The notes beneath the pieces were generated by a model. That model was given only the letters and a program-made list of their open reading frames with translations. It was not told the origin of the DNA and did no database searches. The translations under genes and the position numbers were made by a program. Shown here in pieces: positions 1 through 11,403 of a stretch of DNA of 11,946 nucleotides. Location of the stretch: IMG/VR virus record IMGVR_UViG_2585427728_000004; one strand, written 5' to 3'. Numbering within the stretch: position 1 is the stretch's first letter; each line of letters starts with the position of its first letter. Source of the DNA: a virus. Lineage: Duplodnaviria > Heunggongvirae > Uroviricota > Caudoviricetes.

Positions 1-1368
1 TTACTTCACGGAATATTTTGCCACGGTCGCTTTCGCGCCATGCGCTAATAAAGACAAGTACGTTTCCGTCACTCTTGCAGTAAACAAACTATTGTCTGGC
101 AAATCATCACCAAAGATCGCCTTAATCGCCAGCAATGACTGGACGCGCGCTTTCCCTTCGTCACTACTTTGTACAGCCTTCTGAATAACAGGTAACAGTG
201 GGTCACTGATTTCTATCGGATTTCCCTGTTCATCAACACCACCGACATAACGCATCCAACCCGCGACGCCCAGCGCCAGCAGATCGAACTTGCTGTCATG
301 CGCCAGATGCCAGCGAACAGAATCCAACATCCGCTGTGGCAATTTCTGGCTACCATCCATCGCAATCTGCCAGGTTCGATGACGTAACGCCGGGTTGCTA
401 TAGCGTGCAATTAATCGGTTAGCGTAATCTTGCAAATCAACGCCCTGCACTTTCAACGTCGGCGCTTGTTCCTGCAACATCAAGCCATACGCCGCATAAC
501 GATATTGTTCATCTTCCATACAGTCATTAATGTGCTGATATCCTGCAAGATACCCCAGATACGCCAGGAATGAATGACTGCCGTTGAGCATGCGCAACTT
601 CATCTCTTCATAAGGCAGCACATCGCTAACCAGTTCGGCTCCCGCTTTTTCCCATTCCGGACGTCCGGCAACAAAGTTATCTTCTATTACCCACTGGCGG
701 AAAGGTTCACAGGCAACGCCCGCAGGATCGCCCACACCGGTAAGTTGTTCGATTTTCGCCAGCGTATCCTCTGTCACTGCGGGCACAATACGGTCCACCA
801 TTGTTGATGGGAAAGTCACGTTATCTTCGATCCATTGTGCCAGTTTTACATCAACGGCTTGTGCGTAGGAAGTGACAACGTCACGCATAACATGACCGTT
901 TTCTGGCATGTTGTCACATGACATGACGGTAAATGCGGGAAGTCCTGCCGCTTTACGGCGAGCCAGCGCCTCAACAATCACCCCTGTTGCTGTTTTCGGC
1001 TGGTGGGGATTTTGCACGTCGGCAGCGACCATCGGGTGATCGAGCATTAACTGTCCGGTCGCCGGAGAGTGGAAATACCCTTTTTCGGTGATTGTCAGAG
1101 AGACAATCGCAATTTGCGGTTCACACATCGCAGCCAGCACGGTTTCTAAGCCATCTATTTGTACGTGCAAGGCTTTTTTAACGACGCCAACGACGCGAGC
1201 CGTCCACGCGTCGGCCGACATTTCCGCAACGGTATAAAGATTATCTTGCTGTTGTAAATCGGCAATTTGCTGTTCGCCGCCGATTAAGTTGACCTCATAA
1301 TATCCCCAGTCACTGAAATGTTCCGTAGCAAGAATACAGAGTGCGTATGAGCGCCTGCAGAAGAAGTG
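1..1368 (-). pseudogene. ydfI: Mannitol dehydrogenase family oxidoreductase (UxuB/YdfI-like), 5'-truncated remnant; the ORF-track ORF 1..1221 is its internal-ATG portion
   Basis: The 406-aa ORF aligns with the UxuB family from about residue 85 to the C-terminus ([45 protein letters not shown]). My hand translation of the same frame upstream of the ATG at 1221 continues the homology ([16 protein letters not shown]) up to an in-frame stop at 1369-1371 with no start codon, so the N-terminal Rossmann region is missing. Symbol is inferred from the neighbouring Qin-like prophage. Confidence 0.6.
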
Positions 1369-1930
1369 TTAACACTGTATTTAGAATAATCAGATGCTCC
1401 ACTTCCCGGAGCACCACTGGAACCACCTGAAACAAATGTCATCGAATGGGTATGTGCACCGGCTGAAGCAGCCGTACCGCTAACACTATGGGTATGCGCC
1501 CCGGTGTTATTCGTGGATTTAGTGCCGTAATCAAACGACGATGTGGTTTTCGTACCCAAATCCGTACTGGATGCGCTGGCGCTGTGGGTGTGCGATTTAA
1601 TGCCGTCCTGTTCCTGAGACAATATGGCTCGACCACTGGCGGGCTTGCCCTTAATCGTCCAGCCACGCAAATCAGGGATCACGCCTGACGGATAAGCGGC
1701 AGCAAGTTTCGGGTAGGCAGATTTGTCAAAAGTCTGCCCCTGCATCAGGGCATAACCAGACGGAACGGTATCTGATGGCCACGGGATTGGTGCGCCGACT
1801 GGGTAGCTTTCTGGTGGAAGATTTTTCGAGGTATAAACTTCTGCCCAGTCTTCCTCAAAACCATAGCCATCTCTTGAAGAACGGTAGAACAGACCTCCAT
1901 TTCTGTAATGCGCCTTCATCTGCAGGGTCC
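1338..1930 (-). pseudogene. Side tail fiber protein C-terminal fragment (Stf/gp37-like tip with GAHTHS repeats), lacking its N-terminal part; approximate boundaries
   Basis: ORF 1284..2051 contains [12 protein letters not shown]...[34 protein letters not shown] followed by three GAHTHS repeats typical of lambda Stf/T4 gp37-type fiber tips. The first ~44 codons and last ~17 codons of that ORF are out-of-frame readings of terminase and ydfI DNA respectively. Confidence 0.55.
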
Positions 1931-3339
1931 GGCAACTTCCGACTCCGGTAGCTGGCCGGATCAATTCGCTGGCTCTCCCCGTCGCTGTCACCGCGCAATG
2001 ACTGCGTGATGTTGTAACGATCAATAATCCAGCGTTCGCCACGGCTGCCATAGCCCGTTACCTGAACCACAAAACGGCGATGACGTCCCGCCTGCACATC
2101 CACTGTCGCCACAAGGAAATTAACGCCATCCGGCACACTGCGGGAAGGAACTGGCTCTGCCCGCTGCTCAAGCAATTCACTTTTTCGTTGCTCCATGCTG
2201 GCGCGGGGAAGATAAGGTAATCCCCAGTCGGTATTGATAACCGTCTTGAGTGTCTCTTCACTTCCGGTTGTCTCGTATTCCTGTTCTGCAGTAAGCAGCT
2301 TGTAAACGAGTTGCGAGAGTGTCTGATAAGCAGCTGCCGGACCCTCCATCCAGAATGACGCAATACGTGAACGCCGGGGATCACCATAACGACTGCCATC
2401 TGCATTGATGGATTCACCATCCCGTAACCAGACCCCACGTCCGTTCAGCTCGCGTTTTTGTTCAGGCAAAATCCGTCCTGAACAGGAAGGACACTGAATA
2501 TAAGCCGCCTCACTTGCCAGCACAGGATCGGCAATATCACGGAAACCAGCAACCACATCGCCGCAGGGCTGAAAATACTCACCACAGTGTGGACAGGGCC
2601 AGTACCAGCGACGGCGATCGCCACGGTTATAGAGCGACAGGATCCCCGTGGTTGGTGGAGCCTCATGCGGTGAAGTCCGTCGCCATTTCACATCCTTCAC
2701 ATCCCTGCCGGGGGAACTCTCCACCAGCGTCATACCACTGGACATAAATGTGGTGGTACGTTTTGAGGCAAGAGAGAAGGCATCCCCCTCACCATCAATA
2801 TCTTCCGGAAAACGGTCATAATCCGTCAGCGCCACGCATTTATAATCTGATGAAGACATGATATTGACTGACGGCCAGCCGATTTTCAGGTAGTTGCCAG
2901 CAAGGAATGTTCTGTCATAAACGTTGTTGTCATTTTTGTTCGGACTCAGGCGACTGACCACTTCCGGGCTGACGCGAAACGTTCTGGCGAGTCGTTTTTT
3001 GGAGTGTTCGCGGGCTTTTTCCTCCGTCATCTGAATGATCAGCATATCAGCAGGATCGCAAATCACGTTGTAAATCACCCAGCCGTCAATCAGGCCGATA
3101 GTCTTGCCGGTTCGTGCCGGGCCAACAAATATCACTGCGTCGTATTCACGCGAGGCCAGGCAGTTCATAGGCTCAATAACATACGGTGCCACCAGCGGAT
3201 CCCACGGGACTGAGTTCCCTGCCCCCATGGGCACCCGCATATACTGAGCAACGGCATCAGCAACCCGCATTCGTCTCGGTGCGCGAAGGATATAACCTGA
3301 ATCGGTTCGTGCTGCCTTTGCGGTTTCCTGATTCAGCAT
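1855..3339 (-). CDS. Phage terminase large subunit (lambda GpA family), C-terminally truncated and fused into tail-fiber DNA; probably non-functional
   Basis: 494-aa ORF with Walker-A-like GPARTGKT, the CPHCGE motif and a WIIDRYNI segment matching the lambda gpA nuclease-domain region. Lambda gpA is about 640 aa; homology ends near residue 465 and the frame then runs through tail-fiber sequence to a stop. The start ATG overlaps the upstream stop (TAATG). Confidence 0.75.
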
Positions 3340-3833
3340 TACTCCTCCTGCTGTAATTCCTCCTCATCATCCGCACCTGCTTCAGTCACCCGCAGGGCTA
3401 TCTGATCGCGCAGATCATCAATAATGGACTGAACACGGCTCACAGCGTCAGGCTGCAGACCGCAGTCACGTTCAAGAATATCCGGTAATGTCTCCAGCAC
3501 CTGCACGACCGCTTTTGCCCAGATGGCAAACTCCCGTCTGACATCACTGGCCGGAATGAGTTGTGCCGTTTCCTGTTCGAACTTAAGACGCTCACGTTCA
3601 GACTGATACCAGGCTTTGCGCTCATGCGCGTCCATTTCGCCTTCTGCAACCGGCGGTGGTAATGCCAGAAATGCCGACACAATATCAACCACCCGATAAA
3701 GCTTGAGGTTGCTTTCATGCCCCCCTGCAACGGGTAGATTTTGCAGCCTTGCCGCAGCAGTCTGGCGATGTACACCTGACAATGCCGCCAGTTGACTGAT
3801 ATTCAGCGTCAGATTTTTTAACTCTCGATCCAT
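3339..3833 (-). CDS. nohA: Terminase small subunit / DNA-packaging protein (Nu1/NohA-like)
   Basis: 164-aa ORF directly upstream of and overlapping the terminase large subunit gene; N-terminal HTH-like LNISQLAALSGVHRQTAAARL and an acidic C-terminus; a cos-like sequence lies ~190 bp upstream, as in lambda. Confidence 0.75.
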   Translation of the reverse strand: MDRELKNLTLNISQLAALSGVHRQTAAARLQNLPVAGGHESNLKLYRVVDIVSAFLALPPPVAEGEMDAHERKAWYQSERERLKFEQETAQLIPASDVRREFAIWAKAVVQVLETLPDILERDCGLQPDAVSRVQSIIDDLRDQIALRVTEAGADDEEELQQEE

Positions 3834-5530: not shown

Positions 5531-5735
5531 TCATTTTCACTTTCTTAAATCTAACGACAGATGGCTAACATTTAAGTATTGTGAAATATTATCAAATGTA
5601 ATCATCATTGATTTACAAAAGATACATTTTGCCCCGAAAGGATTTCTGTCAGAAACATCAAAAGATGATGTTCTATACTGAGAACCATGGCAACACGGGC
5701 ATCTAAAGTGAATATGGTTTGTAATATTTTCTACC

Positions 5736-5948
5736 TCAAAGTGCCACTACATGAACAGCTGCAGGGCCTTTAGGTCCGTTCTCAATACCAAATTCGACTT
5801 CCTGATTCTCAGTTAACGTTTTGAAATCGTTGCTCTGAATAGCTGAGAAATGCACAAACACATCTTTGCTACCATCTTTCGGCGTGATGAAACCAAAACC
5901 TTTTTCAGGGTTAAACCATTTCACTAAACCAGTCATTTTGTTAGACAT
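5736..5948 (-). CDS. cspI: Cold shock protein CspA family (70 aa), CspI-like
   Basis: [70 protein letters not shown] carries the RNP1/RNP2 motifs (KGFGFI, VFVHF) of cold shock proteins; AAGG Shine-Dalgarno and a long AT-rich leader lie upstream. Confidence 0.9.
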
Positions 5949-6311
5949 CATTATTACCTTTTGAAGAAGTTAGCCCTTGGGCAGAATGGTCCGAAAAAAA
6001 ATATCAGAAAGAAAAACCAACAAGGAAATCTCAAGAGGTACAAATAATAAAATTATAACAATGACTGCTTCAGATAATTTTGTAACAAACCAGAACACCA
6101 TTAACGCATGATTAACCAACCATAGCAAGGATTACTTTTGTAAAGAAAAACACACGAATGAAACAATAGCTTTATTTATTAATAAAACGTGTCATTCTGT
6201 CTAATGACCTTTTATCTTACCCTTAAGATTTCAAGGATTTTGACTCATGGAAGAGTCCTTTTTATTTAAATTTCACATTCAGCGCTAAAAATAATCCGAT
6301 TTAATATTAAT

Positions 6312-7334
<1,023 letters not shown>

Positions 7335-7338
<4 letters not shown>

Positions 7339-7646
7339 AGATATTTATGATGAGGACGCTCGTGCTTATTGGCAGGATTTTCAATCTTAAAGGAGTACTG
7401 ATGCTGCAGATAAGACTCAACTTTTTCTGACAATTTTTCTGCTACTTCCAGGAAGACTTGCCGGACGCTCATTCTGGCTGCTGCCTCATAAAACTCCAGC
7501 ACAGCTCCTTCAACACGGTCCATGGCGACATCCAGGCCAAAAATTTCACCGTCAAAGCGTTCTTTGTCCTGTAAGGCTACAGTTACCGTAACTTTATTCT
7601 CAAAATTACGGACTCCTTTCACAACCAGTTCATAGTCTTGAGTCAT
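7335..7646 (-). CDS. ydfR: YdfR-like protein (DUF1327), unknown function, embedded in the lysis cassette
   Basis: 103-aa ORF with strong GAGGAGAG Shine-Dalgarno, start 4 nt after the holin stop; its stop overlaps the endolysin ATG (ATGA). Confidence 0.75.
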
Positions 7647-7650
7647 TGGA

Positions 7651-7866
7651 TTACTCTCCTCTCGCAGCCTTACGCCTGTCTTCTTTAATCTTGAAATAAA
7701 GATTTGTCAGATACGTCAGCATGCCAAATACCAGACTACCCAATACACCTATTGCCGCCCACTGTGAGGGCGTGACTTTATCGAGCAACTGTAAAAACCA
7801 GTAGCCAGCACTGCCTGCAGAGGTGCTGTAGGCGATGCCCGTTGTTAACTTATCCATGGATTTCAT
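7651..7866 (-). CDS. essQ: Pinholin, phage 21 S21-like class II holin with dual-start motif (71 aa)
   Basis: [71 protein letters not shown] has two transmembrane segments and a charged C-terminus; GGAGGTGA Shine-Dalgarno upstream. The ORF-track extension to 7950 is read-through. Confidence 0.85.
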
Positions 7867-7954
7867 AGCCTCACCTCCGCAGATAACGGATGGTGTACAC
7901 GGTTTGGTTCGAAGAAGGAAAGAAGTTACATTAGCGTAAGGCCCGAACATCTAT

Positions 7955-7987
7955 TCAAAAAGAAAAACGCCAGCAATTATTCTGGCG
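7955..7987 (-). terminator. Candidate intrinsic terminator between the AraC-family gene and the holin
   Basis: Plus strand aaaaaCGCCAGcaattattCTGGCG; on the minus strand CGCCAG-aauaauug-CUGGCG is followed by UUUUUCUUUUU. Confidence 0.45.
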
Positions 7988-8056
7988 TAGCTAAAAATAT
8001 CGTATAATCTTACACTTCAAAAAATAACTTTATAAAATACCATCACATCATATCTT

Positions 8057-8770
8057 CTAAGAAAATCTTGATAAATATTGGTGCGGAGGCACACCAAAAT
8101 ATCCTCTAAAAACACTTACAAAATATGATGCATTGTCATACCCGCATATTCCCGCCACCTTGCCGACAGTATGGTTACTGTAGATCAATAATCTTTGCGC
8201 CATCATCATTCGTTCTTCAAGAATTAATTTACTAAACGATAATCCTTCGTCTTTTAATTTTCTTTTTAACAAACTCTCGCTCATATATAATCTTGAAGAT
8301 ATATCACAAAGTCTCCATGACGCAGAGATATCCGAGTGAATAATAGCCTTAACTTTACAACCTAAGCTATTAAGACTTCCGAACAAAAAACTTTGCACTA
8401 TTTTCTCTGAAGATAAGACAGCAAGACATGCAAGTGATATTTGATTTCTAACTACATCCACGGTTTTGCTATCACAATTCAAGCATGCAACCAAGTTCTT
8501 TAACAATGAAAAATCTTCACATTCTACTATCAAGTATGACGGATAAAACCTTCTTACAGAAAAAGGTGAGAGTGTGTAGTTTTTAAAGAAATCATTAACT
8601 GTTTTCTCCTCAACATCTACGATCATTAGATGATCTGTATTTGACGAAAAAAGATCTTTTAAATTGTATTCAATGAGGACAGCATTTCCTTTTTTAAACA
8701 AAATATCTTCTTTACCAATTCGGACACCAAACGAGTTCAACACCAAAATGATAGAACATATGTATGGCAT
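8057..8770 (-). CDS. AraC/XylS-family transcriptional regulator (AppY/Rns-like size class, 237 aa from the ATG at 8770)
   Basis: C-terminal double HTH typical of AraC family (LLKRKLKDEGLSFSKLILEERMMMAQRLL...VGKVAGICGYDNASYFVSVFRGYFGVPPHQY). AGGTGG Shine-Dalgarno 5 nt before the ATG at 8770; the ORF-track start at 8779 is GTG. The gene and its ~400-bp upstream region are visibly AT-rich. Confidence 0.85.
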   Translation of the reverse strand: MPYICSIILVLNSFGVRIGKEDILFKKGNAVLIEYNLKDLFSSNTDHLMIVDVEEKTVNDFFKNYTLSPFSVRRFYPSYLIVECEDFSLLKNLVACLNCDSKTVDVVRNQISLACLAVLSSEKIVQSFLFGSLNSLGCKVKAIIHSDISASWRLCDISSRLYMSESLLKRKLKDEGLSFSKLILEERMMMAQRLLIYSNHTVGKVAGICGYDNASYFVSVFRGYFGVPPHQYLSRFS

Positions 8771-9176
8771 ATTATCCACCTGATATCATTGGGGTTACAC
8801 CAGGTAAGTATAGGTGGAAAATCAATATTCGCCAGTTCAACAATAAGGAAAATCTCATTGCATCACAACTATAAAACCATGTGTTTAACTCACAAAAAAC
8901 AAATCATTAAACTAATCTGTTATATTATAATAGCTGCGTGCAATAATAATATTATATGCTCTTAATATTCACTTGAAATATCTTCATATAAAAACAGATT
9001 GAATAAAATCTTTTGGGGCTGGTATGTTTACCAACATTAAATTGCATCTCAATGTTTTCTTTAGCGTGAACAGGATTTTTATAAAAACTGACACTATGAG
9101 CATCATAGCGTAGTTTTTACGATTGTAAATATCCTGCATACAGGAACTCATCACTTTCAGATGATATCGCATACAG
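8771..9176 (-). promoter_or_regulatory. AT-rich leader/promoter region of the AraC-family gene; candidate nucleoid-protein (H-NS-type) silencing target
   Basis: About 400 bp of very AT-rich non-coding DNA between two minus-strand genes. The only ORF here (8984..9172) is low-complexity with no ribosome-binding site. No specific promoter hexamers assigned. Confidence 0.3.
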
Positions 9177-10136
9177 TTAATTCACCATCAGTCTTAGAGC
9201 CAGTTCTTCCGGATAGGGATCGAAGTAGTTCTGTGTAAGCAAGTAATCATTAGGATACTCACCCAGATAATGCTTCAGCAGAGTCAACGGCGCAAGAAGA
9301 GGCAATGTGCCAAAGCGATAGTTAAGTATAACCTCGCTCAACTCTTTACGCTGGCGTGTACTTAAGTAATTACTAAAATACCCCTGTATATGCATCAGCA
9401 CATTCGTGTGATTTTTACGTGATGCTGGTTTTCTGAGAATCGCCATCAGATTATCACGATACACCTCAAAGTATGATTCAAGGTCCGCCCACTCGTGTAT
9501 TGCAGCCACAAATGGTCCCATATCTTTATAGCCTGCCTGGCTATGCGCCAACAACTGAAGCTTATAACGACTATGAAAAGCTAATAACTCTCTTCTTGAT
9601 AATTTCTCCTTGTAAAGGTGATTGAGCTCATGCAAAGCAAAAACTCTTTCAATAAAATTCTCACGAAGCACTGGATCATGTAATCGCCCATCCTCTTCAA
9701 CCGGTAGCCAGGAAAACTTTTCCATCAAAGTGCTCGTAAATAGTCCCACTCCATCTTTACGACCTCGATTACCATTTTCATCATAGACACGCACGCGCTC
9801 CATGCCACAGCTGGGAGATTTAGCACAAACCACAAACCCCGATACATCCTTTAATTTGTCCATATAAGAACGACTAAACTCTGTCATTCTCTCTGTCACA
9901 TCCTCATTCTGGTCGTGGCTGAAACACATCCGTATATTTCCTTGCTTCGAGCGCACAAGTCGTAGAGCAGGACGCGGAACTGGCAGCCCTATAGCCATTT
10001 CCGGACATACTGGTCTGAATGTTACCCATTCCACTAATTTGTCCATTAAAAAGTCATCTCTTTTGTGACCACCATCAAAACGAACAGCAGAACCGCCCAA
10101 ACAACCGCTGATCCCAATCACAGGTTTTTTTATCAT
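9177..10136 (-). CDS. DUF523/DUF1722 fusion protein (TudS-like putative [4Fe-4S] thionucleobase desulfidase with YbgA-like domain)
   Basis: N-terminal MIKKPVIGISGCLGGSAVRFDGGHKRD with three spaced cysteines (GISGC, PVCPE, SPSCG) as in DUF523/TudS; the C-terminal half resembles DUF1722 (YbgA). Strong GGGGGAGGAA Shine-Dalgarno 4 nt upstream of the ATG. Confidence 0.8.
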   Translation of the reverse strand: MIKKPVIGISGCLGGSAVRFDGGHKRDDFLMDKLVEWVTFRPVCPEMAIGLPVPRPALRLVRSKQGNIRMCFSHDQNEDVTERMTEFSRSYMDKLKDVSGFVVCAKSPSCGMERVRVYDENGNRGRKDGVGLFTSTLMEKFSWLPVEEDGRLHDPVLRENFIERVFALHELNHLYKEKLSRRELLAFHSRYKLQLLAHSQAGYKDMGPFVAAIHEWADLESYFEVYRDNLMAILRKPASRKNHTNVLMHIQGYFSNYLSTRQRKELSEVILNYRFGTLPLLAPLTLLKHYLGEYPNDYLLTQNYFDPYPEELALRLMVN

Positions 10137-10328
10137 TTCCTCCCCCTTGACTAATTCATTAACACATAAACTTTGTAGTGCACGGACTAAATTGCCTTTC
10201 TGGCTTCATCACTGACAATTTTTCTGTTATTGACTATTCCTAATATAGTAGGAAAGTTCTTTAAGTGATCGGTCGTACTCATCTATCTTTCATACTTACT
10301 CTCAACTATCAAAAGTACAGGATTTATT
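10137..10328. promoter_or_regulatory. Divergent intergenic region between the DUF523/DUF1722 gene and the lipocalin gene; presumed to hold both promoters
   Basis: 192-bp gap between divergently oriented starts; contains TTGACT- and TATAGT-like hexamers but no confident -35/-10 pairing by eye. Confidence 0.3.
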
Positions 10329-10853
10329 ATGAAGTTATGGCCTGTGTTGACTGGCATTGCACTCTCTTTCACTCTTATAGCATGTAAGGCCCCGACACCA
10401 CCTAAAGGTGTGCAGCCGATTACAAATTTTGACGCCAACCGCTACCTCGGAAAATGGTATGAAATAGCTCGCCTCGAGAACTGGTTCGAACGTGGTCTGG
10501 AACAGGTCAGCGCTACTTATGAAAAACGGAACGACGGAGGGATTCGCGTACTTAACCGTGGATACGATCCAACGAAAAACAAATGGAGCGAGAGCGAAGG
10601 TAAAGCATACTTTACTGGAGATACTAAAACTGCAGCGTTGAAAGTTTCGTTTTTTGGCCCCTTCTATGGTGGCTATAATGTAATCAAACTGGATGATGAG
10701 TATAAGTATGCTCTTGTCAGTGGTCCGAACAGAGAATACCTATGGATTCTGGCAAGGACCCAAACTATTCCAGATAATGTAAAAGCAGACTATGTGCGTA
10801 CCGCTCAAAAGTTGGGATTCAATGTCAATGAACTATTATGGGTTAAACAATAA
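10329..10853 (+). CDS. Bacterial lipocalin Blc-like outer-membrane lipoprotein (174 aa)
   Basis: Signal peptide with LIAC lipobox (MKLWPVLTGIALSFTLIAC), then Blc motifs NFDANRYLGKWYEIARLENWFERGLEQVSATY and GKAYFTGDTKTAALKVSFFGPFYGGYNVIKLD...YLWILARTQ. AGGA Shine-Dalgarno upstream. Only plus-strand gene in the window. Confidence 0.85.
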   Translation: MKLWPVLTGIALSFTLIACKAPTPPKGVQPITNFDANRYLGKWYEIARLENWFERGLEQVSATYEKRNDGGIRVLNRGYDPTKNKWSESEGKAYFTGDTKTAALKVSFFGPFYGGYNVIKLDDEYKYALVSGPNREYLWILARTQTIPDNVKADYVRTAQKLGFNVNELLWVKQ

Positions 10854-11008: not shown

Positions 11009-11386
11009 TTATTTCGAACAATCAGCATCCATCTCCAATCGGAGATCCAACACCATCAGCATGCCCTCCACTACGCCCTCAGCTTTCTGGAGCATCCTGC
11101 CAACCCAACAATCAGATCGCCCATGCTTACGTGCAAGCGCCATAAAAGTCATGCCGCCGACATAATAGTCCACCAATAAATCATGTAAATCGCTGTTGTT
11201 TTTTTTCAGGCGAGCCATACATTCACAAATGATCATCGCGTCATCGTCACAGCATTGCGGACGAGATCTTACTTTTGAAGGAATTAATCCCTTAAAACCG
11301 GCGGCAATGGACGACCAGGTCACATCTTCATGATTATTAGCCGCCCATGCCCCCCAACGCTCAAGAACCATCTGAATATCACGCAT
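11009..11386 (-). CDS. Late-gene antitermination protein Q (short QuuD/phage-82-type, ~125 aa)
   Basis: [24 protein letters not shown]...[18 protein letters not shown]... matches the short Q antiterminator family with its cysteine cluster; GGAG Shine-Dalgarno 9 nt before the ATG at 11386. The ORF-track start at 11401 is TTG. Confidence 0.75.
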
Positions 11387-11403
11387 CAACTTACTCCACA
11401 AAA

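Follow-up and report, generated by a model that had tools for sequence, protein, structure and literature searches.

The DUF1327 gene ydfR between the pinholin and endolysin genes of Escherichia coli prophages: an optional late-operon gene and possible relic of a mobile two-gene insert

The gene ydfR lies between the holin and endolysin genes of many lambdoid prophages of Escherichia coli, and our best reading of it, held with about even confidence, is that it is a real but optional accessory gene of the late operon, left orphaned from a mobile insert of two genes, and that it belongs neither to the core of the lysis machinery nor to its dedicated components. Its position would then be a historical accident of insertion and deletion, an account that avoids misannotation of the gene as a "lysis regulator" and that shifts the focus to an effect on RNA metabolism, to an effect in cis on endolysin translation, and to the role of the pair formed by DUF1327 genes and a convergent neighbor. 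The gene itself, its family and its position are already known from databases and are ordinary for E. coli. As far as the literature was checked, in which DUF1327 is named by one paper, two points may be new: that DUF1327 repeatedly occurs together with a convergent gene, and that the overlap between ydfR and the endolysin gene originated by deletion.

The stretch of DNA analyzed here (the window; 11,946 nucleotides, IMG/VR record IMGVR_UViG_2585427728_000004) is a Qin-like cryptic prophage of E. coli, short and in an advanced state of decay, situated between ydfI' and the chromosomal rspB side. All of its late genes are on the minus strand, in the order Q, cargo genes, holin, ydfR, rrrQ, rzpQ and cspI, followed by terminase and tail-fibre remnants (Table 1). 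The chromosomes of strains ET881 and SW071610 match a 1.7-kb query over the lysis genes (positions 6300-8000) with 100% identity, and in their records the genes are annotated as essD (holin), ydfR (DUF1327 domain-containing protein), rrrQ (lysozyme, "frameshifted") and rzpQ. A first-pass annotation, made from the letters of the window alone, had recognized a 103-aa DUF1327 gene, ydfR, between a pinholin and an endolysin gene, and this assignment is confirmed by the matches of the two minus-strand genes to PF07041 and PF04971. That reader missed that the endolysin gene of the window is a pseudogene and that the locus is identical to a chromosome already naming ydfR. The ORF lister stretches the holin ORF to position 7950, and homologs begin at 7866. 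A consensus scan found no promoter-like site for ydfR in the window, and a search of Rfam returned no RNA family in or near ydfR, the sole match being the cspA-type thermoregulator leader that precedes cspI.

Table 1. Features of the lysis region and its surroundings in the window, with the evidence for each
Feature	Position	Strand	Evidence or remark
Q antiterminator gene	11009-11401	minus	
Three cargo genes between Q and holin: lipocalin, DUF523/DUF1722 protein, AraC-type regulator		plus (lipocalin)	
Terminator-like hairpin and T-run between the AraC-type cargo gene and holin	7957-7988	minus	consensus scan, pattern match only
Holin gene, phage-21-type class II (pinholin), 71 aa	7651-7866	minus	PF04971, E 6.1e-34; annotated essD
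AGGAG Shine-Dalgarno in holin 3' end	7654-7658	minus	read from sequence
ydfR, 103 aa, "Qin type" of the DUF1327/YdfR family, deletion-truncated	7335-7646	minus	PF07041; annotated ydfR, WP_032291405.1
ydfR conserved core, codons 1-72	7431-7646	minus	alignments and AlphaFold2
ydfR C-terminal tail, codons 73-103, subtype-specific, predicted disordered	7338-7430	minus	pLDDT, subtype comparison
Deletion junction	7344-7349	minus	BLASTN colinearity breaks
ATGA stop/start overlap of ydfR and rrrQ	7335-7338	minus	read from sequence
rrrQ, SAR-type T4-like lysozyme, pseudogene in the window	6806-7338	minus	two ORFs with PF00959 halves
rzpQ, i-spanin-like (DUF2514), overlaps rrrQ stop	6312-6809	minus	PF10721, E 3.6e-38; annotation
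o-spanin-like +1-frame ORF embedded in rzpQ, lipobox LTSC	about 6362-6631	minus	ORF list

The window protein matches the Pfam profile of DUF1327 over positions 1-93 of 93 with 171.7 bits (cut-off 25; E 3.7e-51). A search for homologs yielded 228. Conservation is limited to residues 1-72, in which Y5, Y53 and E54 are invariant in DUF1327 alignments and A57 is nearly so, and the core motif YELxVKG ... EGxxLxYYE ... A is common to the window protein and the distant members of the family. Beyond the core there are several unrelated C-terminal tails, so that the total length is 72, 103, 104, 114, 116, 169, 174, 176, 206 and 287 aa. AlphaFold2 predicts that the core folds as three antiparallel strands followed by one long helix, with block pLDDT values of 71-89 for residues 1-60, 67 for residues 61-70 and less than 50 from residue 74 onward. 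The core is acidic (pI 4.6), and the protein is predicted to be soluble with no transmembrane segment (maximum Kyte-Doolittle 19-residue average 0.8). Structure prediction and a remote homology search had been proposed as a check on a role in lysis, and what they return is this soluble beta-beta-beta-alpha core and no relative among lysis proteins: the PDB searched with the family profile gave nothing below E 0.07, Foldseek against viral models gave nothing at E <=0.001, and YdfR matched DUF1327 only in Pfam and function-unknown families only in PHROGs. YdfR likewise matched none of the PADLOC defense models, and the C-terminal extensions have no match in Pfam; a weak match of one long C-terminal tail to HamA (PADLOC, E 0.007) was dismissed. 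The DUF1327 family is tiny: at the 50% identity level, a set of 1.84 billion proteins contains 74 representatives of it, and across 185,579 species-representative genomes the family is confined to Escherichia and Shigella, plus two apparently mis-binned metagenome bins. Matches to ydfR occur in 3450 of 5426 complete genomes, and K-12 and many Stx phages carry the gene, which is among the most widespread uncharacterized prophage genes of E. coli.

The neighboring holin is, judged by its sequence, of the phage-21 type, since it belongs to the class II family PF04971 and begins with MKSMDK, which provides dual starts at M1 and M4 (MKSM motif); pinhole formation is predicted. The phage 434 record annotates the same dual-start motif as S71 antiholin and S68 holin, and the window holin is 94% identical to that gene and also matches PHROG "holin" families. 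At the junction of holin and ydfR, GCGAGAGGAGAG-TAA-TCCA-ATG (also written ...GAGAGGAGAG TAA TCCA ATG), ydfR starts 4 nt after the holin stop and behind a strong Shine-Dalgarno, as had been described, with the AGGAG in the last holin codons at a good spacing of 7 nt from the ydfR ATG. The described ATGA overlap can also be read directly from the sequence at the 3' end of the gene, AAATATCT-ATGA-ACACA, where the ydfR TGA (7335-7337) overlaps the endolysin ATG (7336-7338). The rrrQ start is preceded by CATCATAAATATCT and has no purine-rich element. More generally, cassettes that carry ydfR have a conserved A/T-rich endolysin leader, GATAAATATC(C/T)ATGA, that lacks a Shine-Dalgarno and that is non-coding in BP-4795 and mEp460.

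The N-terminus encoded by rrrQ is Gly/Ala-rich and weakly hydrophobic, as in SAR endolysins (YGLSAAVLALIGAGASAPQ), and the E35/D44/T50 triad of T4-type lysozymes is present; therefore, the label "SAR endolysin" is reasonable. Despite these features the gene is not intact in the window. Alignment with the intact allele, which is found in near-identical genomes, shows that one base was lost from an A5 run at 7156-7159, and the resulting frameshift yields two ORFs of 66 aa and 129 aa. Given the frameshifted endolysin and the degraded prophage, the lysis cassette of the window is dead, and since most of the structural genes are missing as well, the question of a lysis role for ydfR is moot for the window itself.

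The arrangement on the holin side of ydfR is constant, and that on the endolysin side is variable. In all 93 analyzed loci with a close homolog, 3-4 nt separate the start of ydfR from the stop of the S21-type holin gene before it, and the same holin and endolysin families flank it in every E. coli locus analyzed. The distance to the RrrQ-type endolysin gene is -4 nt (ATGA) in 82 of the 93 loci, all of the 103-aa Qin type, in a sample heavily biased toward this type because the viral loci were the best 80 matches. The gap is 50-55 nt in BP-4795, mEp460 and a few others, and 319-448 nt in Evi, PhiR12_2 and the loci L011, L014 and L094. The earlier proposal that the layout implies co-expression at fixed stoichiometry therefore divides in two: co-expression with the holin is very likely in view of the Shine-Dalgarno embedded in the holin gene at 93 of 93 loci, and coupling to the endolysin is plausible in the ATGA subtype only. 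In addition, ydfR is frequently absent. The holin family is found in 438 records of the phage collection and YdfR in 100, such that approximately 77% of the holin-bearing records have no ydfR. In the Stx2a phage Min27, one of the phages without ydfR, an endolysin gene R of the same type begins 4 nt after the holin stop (GGGGAGAGTAAGCTGATG then R), and the Shine-Dalgarno embedded in the holin gene serves the endolysin just as it serves ydfR in the window. In phage 434, S is followed directly by R, and the endolysin gene overlaps the holin stop. These counts and the two phages indicate that ydfR occupies the usual translational slot of the endolysin and that it is dispensable for this lysis system.

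Comparison with longer forms of the gene points to how the ATGA overlap arose. The window is colinear by BLASTN with L094 and L010, two long forms of 174 aa and 206 aa, respectively, up to position 7349, at approximately codon 99 of ydfR. There the alignments break, at window positions 7349/7344 versus 3298/3879 of L094 and 567/928 of L010, and resume just upstream of the endolysin ATG, so that the window skips 580 nt of L094 and 360 nt of L010 (0.36-0.58 kb). According to ORF maps, the missing stretch in L094 comprises the C-terminal extension and a convergent partner ORF, and in L010, which has no convergent ORF, it comprises the C-terminal extension alone. The last four codons of the window ydfR (HKYL, followed by the stop) are the endolysin leader read in frame. 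Given the colinearity break and the origin of these codons, the ATGA "coupling" is a by-product of deletion, and the overlap is the outcome of a lineage-specific event.

Selection acts on ydfR very differently from the genes that flank it. Between subtypes, codons 1-72 show a Nei-Gojobori dN/dS of about 0.2-0.45, a sign of purifying selection that is consistent with a translated protein. An untranslated ORF, which had been named as an observation that would speak against a function in lysis, is thus not what these values suggest, and a chance ORF or a non-coding element is ruled out by the dN/dS together with the Pfam score. Nevertheless, dN of the ydfR core is 3-8 times that of the holin (dN/dS about 0.1) or the lysozyme (about 0.05). 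Among 83 Qin-type loci, which differ by only approximately 2% and were picked by ydfR similarity, pN/pS is 0.75 for ydfR (core 0.85, tail 0.52) versus 0.12 for the holin and 0.04 for rrrQ. Within the Qin type, ydfR therefore appears to evolve almost neutrally next to two strongly constrained lysis genes, a contrast that speaks against ydfR contributing as much as they do to the lysis machinery.

Distant members of the family are found well away from the pinholin. These proteins are 72-94 aa long and score above the Pfam cut-off where they were scanned or in precomputed matches; it is important to point out that the sample consists of only about 13 loci, several of them on short contigs. Their genes lie between the tape-measure gene and gpM (L095), between gpM and gpL (L105, L106), between gpL and gpK (L108, L109), between gpI and gpJ (L107, L110, L111), and ahead of a gpJ-like gene (L096). 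Others are located between Q and a lambda-S-type holin gene accompanied by a GH19 endolysin (L114), upstream of a 3TM holin gene with a lysozyme (L112, L113), or after an Rz fragment in a Cronobacter prophage with PF16931 and PF05449 holins and a GH108 endolysin (L097, L098). DUF1327 members thus adjoin four holin families or none, and their occurrence in tail modules and beside other holins indicates that the family is not tied to pinholins or to lysis.

What the distant loci have in common is a neighbor. A small ORF on the opposite strand, mostly acidic and soluble, directly follows DUF1327 in 13 of 13 distant loci, and a convergent ORF is also present in all five intact E. coli cassettes with the 319-448 nt gap. 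One family of these partners, family A, consists of proteins of 98-101 aa and forms 12 clusters in Escherichia, Cronobacter, Serratia and Pseudescherichia. Its members, at 61-85% identity, are found with DUF1327 in seven different slots. Between the stops of DUF1327 and partner A there is a GC hairpin of 24-28 nt, AAAGCGGC-nnnn-GCCGCTTT, in all five pairs that were read (Evi, Cronobacter, L095, L106, and relatives of Evi and Cronobacter), and by its sequence it looks like a two-way terminator; nothing comparable is left in the window. The other partners of DUF1327 (types B, C and others) are unrelated to A. Partner A in turn also adjoins an unrelated family of 93-95 aa, to which DUF1327 shows no similarity by hhalign, and is found once alone at a contig end. 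No match to the convergent partners was detected in Pfam or PADLOC, and partner A is predicted to be a plain helical bundle. A pattern scan with a 76-aa subgroup gave no match on viral contigs.

RNase E is bound by protein regulators such as RraA and RraB, T4 Srd and phiKZ Dip, of which Srd and Dip are phage-encoded, as is YdfR. One experimental paper on YdfR concerns the same nuclease. In a two-hybrid screen, Göpel et al. 2026 isolated YdfR(1-72) on three occasions and found that residues 1-72 suffice for the interaction with RNase E; full-length K-12 YdfR gave a two-hybrid signal with one Rne construct only, RNase E 1-597, and Strep-YdfR co-purified Rne1-598 from lysates, with abundant DNase-resistant nucleic acid in the eluate (PMC13232886). 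Like RapZ, YdfR is thus reported to bind the N-terminal catalytic half of RNase E and to co-purify RNA (PMC13232886). The evidence for this interaction comes from overproduced YdfR, and given that the co-purification was from lysates with no nuclease control, the association could be bridged by RNA. An acidic core such as that of YdfR is unusual for an RNA binder. In the same study, overproduction of K-12 YdfR with the lysis genes uninduced did not impair growth and had very little effect on the transcriptome, and ydfR was essentially silent under standard conditions (PMC13232886). An envelope-permeability screen names the Keio ydfR mutant among the hits listed in its supplement, with no validation or follow-up (PMC3879167), and the role of ydfR in "envelope integrity" cited in the RNase E study can be traced to these lists only. 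Because the ydfR stop overlaps the start of the SAR endolysin gene, any phenotype of this mutant may have a polar origin, with rrrQ driven from the kan cassette. "Revisiting the y-ome" still lists ydfR as uncharacterized (PMC11551758).

The comparisons show what the gene is and how it is placed, that it is optional, that a deletion occurred, that the paired arrangement recurs, and how selection differs among the genes; from them we infer the following course of events, including the direction of evolution, the translational coupling and the biochemical role. The ancestral unit would have been a DUF1327 gene of about 72 codons on the late strand, arranged tail-to-tail with a small acidic gene on the opposite strand, and this two-gene insert would have landed in many slots of lambdoid genomes. 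One copy in E. coli, ancestral to those of many E. coli phages, would have landed exactly at the junction of holin and endolysin, where ydfR took over the Shine-Dalgarno and 4-nt spacing of the endolysin and so came to be translated immediately after the pinholin. In the Qin lineage, the deletion of 0.36-0.58 kb would then have removed the partner gene and the C-terminal extension and fused the ydfR frame to the endolysin leader, creating the ATGA overlap and leaving as a remnant an orphaned, weakly constrained and soluble cytoplasmic protein. The endolysin start of this type lacks a Shine-Dalgarno and is probably also supplied with ribosomes by the translation of ydfR. The likeliest activity of the protein, on the evidence of one paper, would be the binding of RNA and/or of the catalytic half of RNase E late in infection (PMC13232886). 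Two observations weigh against an orphaned insert: linkage to the holin is invariant in every E. coli locus and could reflect function and not only common descent, and the heterogeneous partners of DUF1327, together with the association of partner A with another family, may point to shared insertion hotspots rather than to a functional unit.

The layout had led the first-pass annotation to propose a lysis regulator or accessory factor, and in its most explicit form this would make YdfR a cytoplasmic timing factor of the pinholin/SAR-endolysin pathway, produced in a fixed ratio with the holin and, for example, binding the charged cytoplasmic C-terminal tail of S21, similar to the action of T4 RIII on holin T, or modulating release of the SAR endolysin. 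The start spacing of 3-4 nt at 93 of 93 E. coli-type loci by means of the Shine-Dalgarno in the holin 3' end, the ATGA overlap in the commonest subtype and the constant holin and endolysin families are what this explanation would predict, there are precedents in T4 RIII (PMC8385771) and in Mu releasin, which acts on a SAR endolysin (PMC9239132), and the Keio mutant was a hit in the envelope-permeability screen. The same layout loses much of this weight once it is seen that the gene is optional, that Min27 has the same endolysin directly behind the holin with roughly three quarters of phages with this holin also doing without ydfR, that the overlap is a by-product of deletion, and that distant members reside in tail modules or beside lambda-S-type, 3TM and other holins. 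The near-neutral pN/pS in the Qin type against strong constraint in both flanking genes, the lack of a growth or lysis phenotype upon overproduction (PMC13232886), the unvalidated and possibly polar nature of the screen result and the lack of a lysis-family match in Pfam or PHROGs point in the same direction. DUF1327 thus has no constant tie to one lysis system, and YdfR has neither a predicted membrane or periplasmic location nor similarity to a known regulator, features that would be anticipated for a dedicated lysis regulator. Every comparative test run disfavors a timing role, at least as far as sequences can speak to it, and we regard it as unlikely. The near-neutral evolution would instead be expected if, in the Qin type, the protein were irrelevant and the ORF were a cis-acting spacer whose translation brings ribosomes from the strong Shine-Dalgarno in the holin gene to the endolysin start and sets a low endolysin level. 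The endolysin start after CATCATAAATATCT, with no purine-rich element and overlapping the ydfR stop, and the use by the Min27 endolysin of the very Shine-Dalgarno that ydfR uses in the window are consistent with this. Other subtypes, however, retain ydfR with untranslated gaps of 50-450 nt before the same leader, indicating that coupling is not general, and the core is under purifying selection between subtypes and conserved in contexts unrelated to lysis, all of which makes a pure spacer improbable.

Two further explanations start from the pair and not from the cassette. DUF1327 and its convergent partner could form an accessory system expressed in the lysogen, with the partner acting, for instance, as a defense or exclusion factor and DUF1327 as its late neutralizer or RNA-level controller, and the Qin copy being a non-functional leftover. 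The convergent ORF in all 13 distant loci and all five intact wide-gap cassettes, partner A with DUF1327 in seven slots and a hairpin between the stops in the five pairs read, the relaxed selection once the partner is lost and the reported RNA and RNase E binding (PMC13232886) all fit such a system. Against it are the several unrelated families from which the partners come, the occurrence of partner A with a family other than DUF1327, its generic helical-bundle fold, the lack of a match to a known defense family and the fact that partner-less forms are by far the commonest, and we consider this explanation doubtful. A more ambitious version of the insert model would make DUF1327 the late-strand half of an undescribed mobile cassette of enterobacterial lambdoid phages that hops among at least seven slots (Q/S, S/R, after Rz, tape-measure/M, M/L, L/K and I/J). 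The DUF1327 protein would work through RNA or RNase E, perhaps controlling the partner transcript or late host RNA decay in the role of an adaptor or decoy, with E. coli ydfR as the orphaned relic of the cassette; in this complete form it is something of a long shot.

In several respects ydfR resembles the morons of lambdoid phages (bor, lom, stx). It is optional and inserted between genes that are adjacent in relatives, as Min27, phage 434 and the 100 versus 438 records illustrate, and DUF1327 genes, like morons, occupy multiple slots between conserved late genes; the terminator-like hairpin beside partner A in other loci may be a further parallel. Unlike morons, ydfR shows no sign of a separate promoter and shares the orientation and translation of the late operon, such that only the convergent partner resembles an independent transcription unit. 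The cassettes of phages 21, 434 and Min27 share with the window the dual-start holin family, a SAR-type endolysin, spanins (Rz/Rz1 in those phages) and a Shine-Dalgarno in the holin 3' end, but have no gene between S and R, with R of Min27 filling the slot that ydfR occupies here. T4 RIII (PMC8385771), Mu gp25 releasin (PMC9239132) and P1 LydB (PMC9025707) are, like YdfR, small proteins encoded in or near lysis genes; no similarity of sequence or fold to YdfR was detected for any of them, and factors of the releasin and LydB type are tied to their own lysis systems, whereas DUF1327 is found also away from lysis genes.

The closest comparison is with the Qin prophage of K-12, where YdfR (UniProt P76160; PF07041) is the product of the same gene in its 103-aa form, with the same holin-ydfR-rrrQ-rzpQ order and the same ATGA overlap. 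The window copy differs from it by a few substitutions, such as G37 and V49, and the window prophage differs from Qin in the cargo upstream of the holin (AraC-type, DUF523/DUF1722 and lipocalin genes) and in its frameshifted rrrQ. The K-12 derivative XL1-Blue carries ydfR at 99% DNA identity to the window.

At seven different lambdoid genome slots, the DUF1327 gene lies tail-to-tail with a convergent small open reading frame, here called partner A, that encodes a conserved family of helical, acidic proteins of 98-101 aa (see table). No match to partner A was found in Pfam or PADLOC, and none is named by PHROG. Examination of five pairs, including those at L005, L097, L095 and L106, revealed a GC hairpin between the stop codons of the two genes. 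Partner A is also found without DUF1327; in Serratia, Pseudescherichia and one metagenome contig, a second small family of 93-95 aa adjoins it in DUF1327's place. Members of this family carry the C-terminal motif RAEQ[FY]A.NYC..[IL]G[IL]GA, and sequence similarity between them and DUF1327 is not detectable.

Some YdfR homologs are long forms with C-terminal extensions that are coiled-coil-like, and the 3' ends of their genes overlap the convergent partner open reading frame by approximately 50 nt. A family match for the extensions was not found.

Coordinates of features in the window and at the compared loci
Feature	Locus	Position	Strand	Remark
Partner A	L005	2744-3040		
Partner A	L097	4001-4297		Cronobacter prophage
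Partner A	L095	693-992		tape-measure/gpM
Partner A	L106	696-1001		gpM/gpL
Partner A	L110/L111	3249-3548		gpI/gpJ
Partner A	L112	753-1055		
Partner A	L113/L114	3240-3542		
93-95-aa family	L099	4315-4602		
93-95-aa family	L100	3254-3538		
93-95-aa family	L101	1377-1658		
Long YdfR	L006	2501-3010		
Long YdfR	L011	3001-3552		
Long YdfR	L094	3001-3525		
Long YdfR	P0130			287 aa
cspI	window	5736-5951	minus	
AraC-type regulator	window	8057-8779	minus	
DUF523+DUF1722/YbgA-like protein	window	9177-10136	minus	
Lipocalin/Blc-like protein	window	10329-10853	plus	
ydfI	window	within 1-3833		truncated
Tail-fibre fragment	window	1284-2051		
Large terminase	window	1855-3339		C-terminally truncated
DUF1441 protein	window	3339-3833		

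Within the window, the endolysin gene rrrQ (minus strand) is a pseudogene, in which an A5 run at 7156-7159 is short by one base (GGAAAAACC to GGAAAACC). Because the E. coli chromosomes ET881 and SW071610 and the IMG/VR contig L015 share the identical base loss, the lesion is inherited and sequencing error is ruled out. In a mechanical open reading frame list the holin reaches 99 aa, with an ATG farther upstream, at 7950, taken as its start; both the homologs and the annotation place the start at 7866 (MKSMDK), and therefore the extension (7867-7950) was rejected as an artefact. An E. coli-type cassette of S21 holin, ydfR and rrrQ is also present at 83-96% identity on contigs in two Firmicutes MAGs, assigned to Veillonella parvula (L008) and Bacillota (L010); these contigs almost certainly come from Escherichia phages and were mis-binned.

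Cold-shock genes are embedded just downstream of the lysis cassette. An Rfam match to the cspA thermoregulator (111 bits; 5690-6095, minus strand) corresponds to the cspI leader, and the literature describes the K-12 ydfR cluster as induced by cold. On the other side of the cassette, at 8057-10853, three cargo genes that are not phage-like separate the holin from the Q antiterminator, in the slot that is occupied by stx in Stx phages. The prophage is badly decayed across 1-3833, and in the matching genome a truncated integrase is found outside the window as well.
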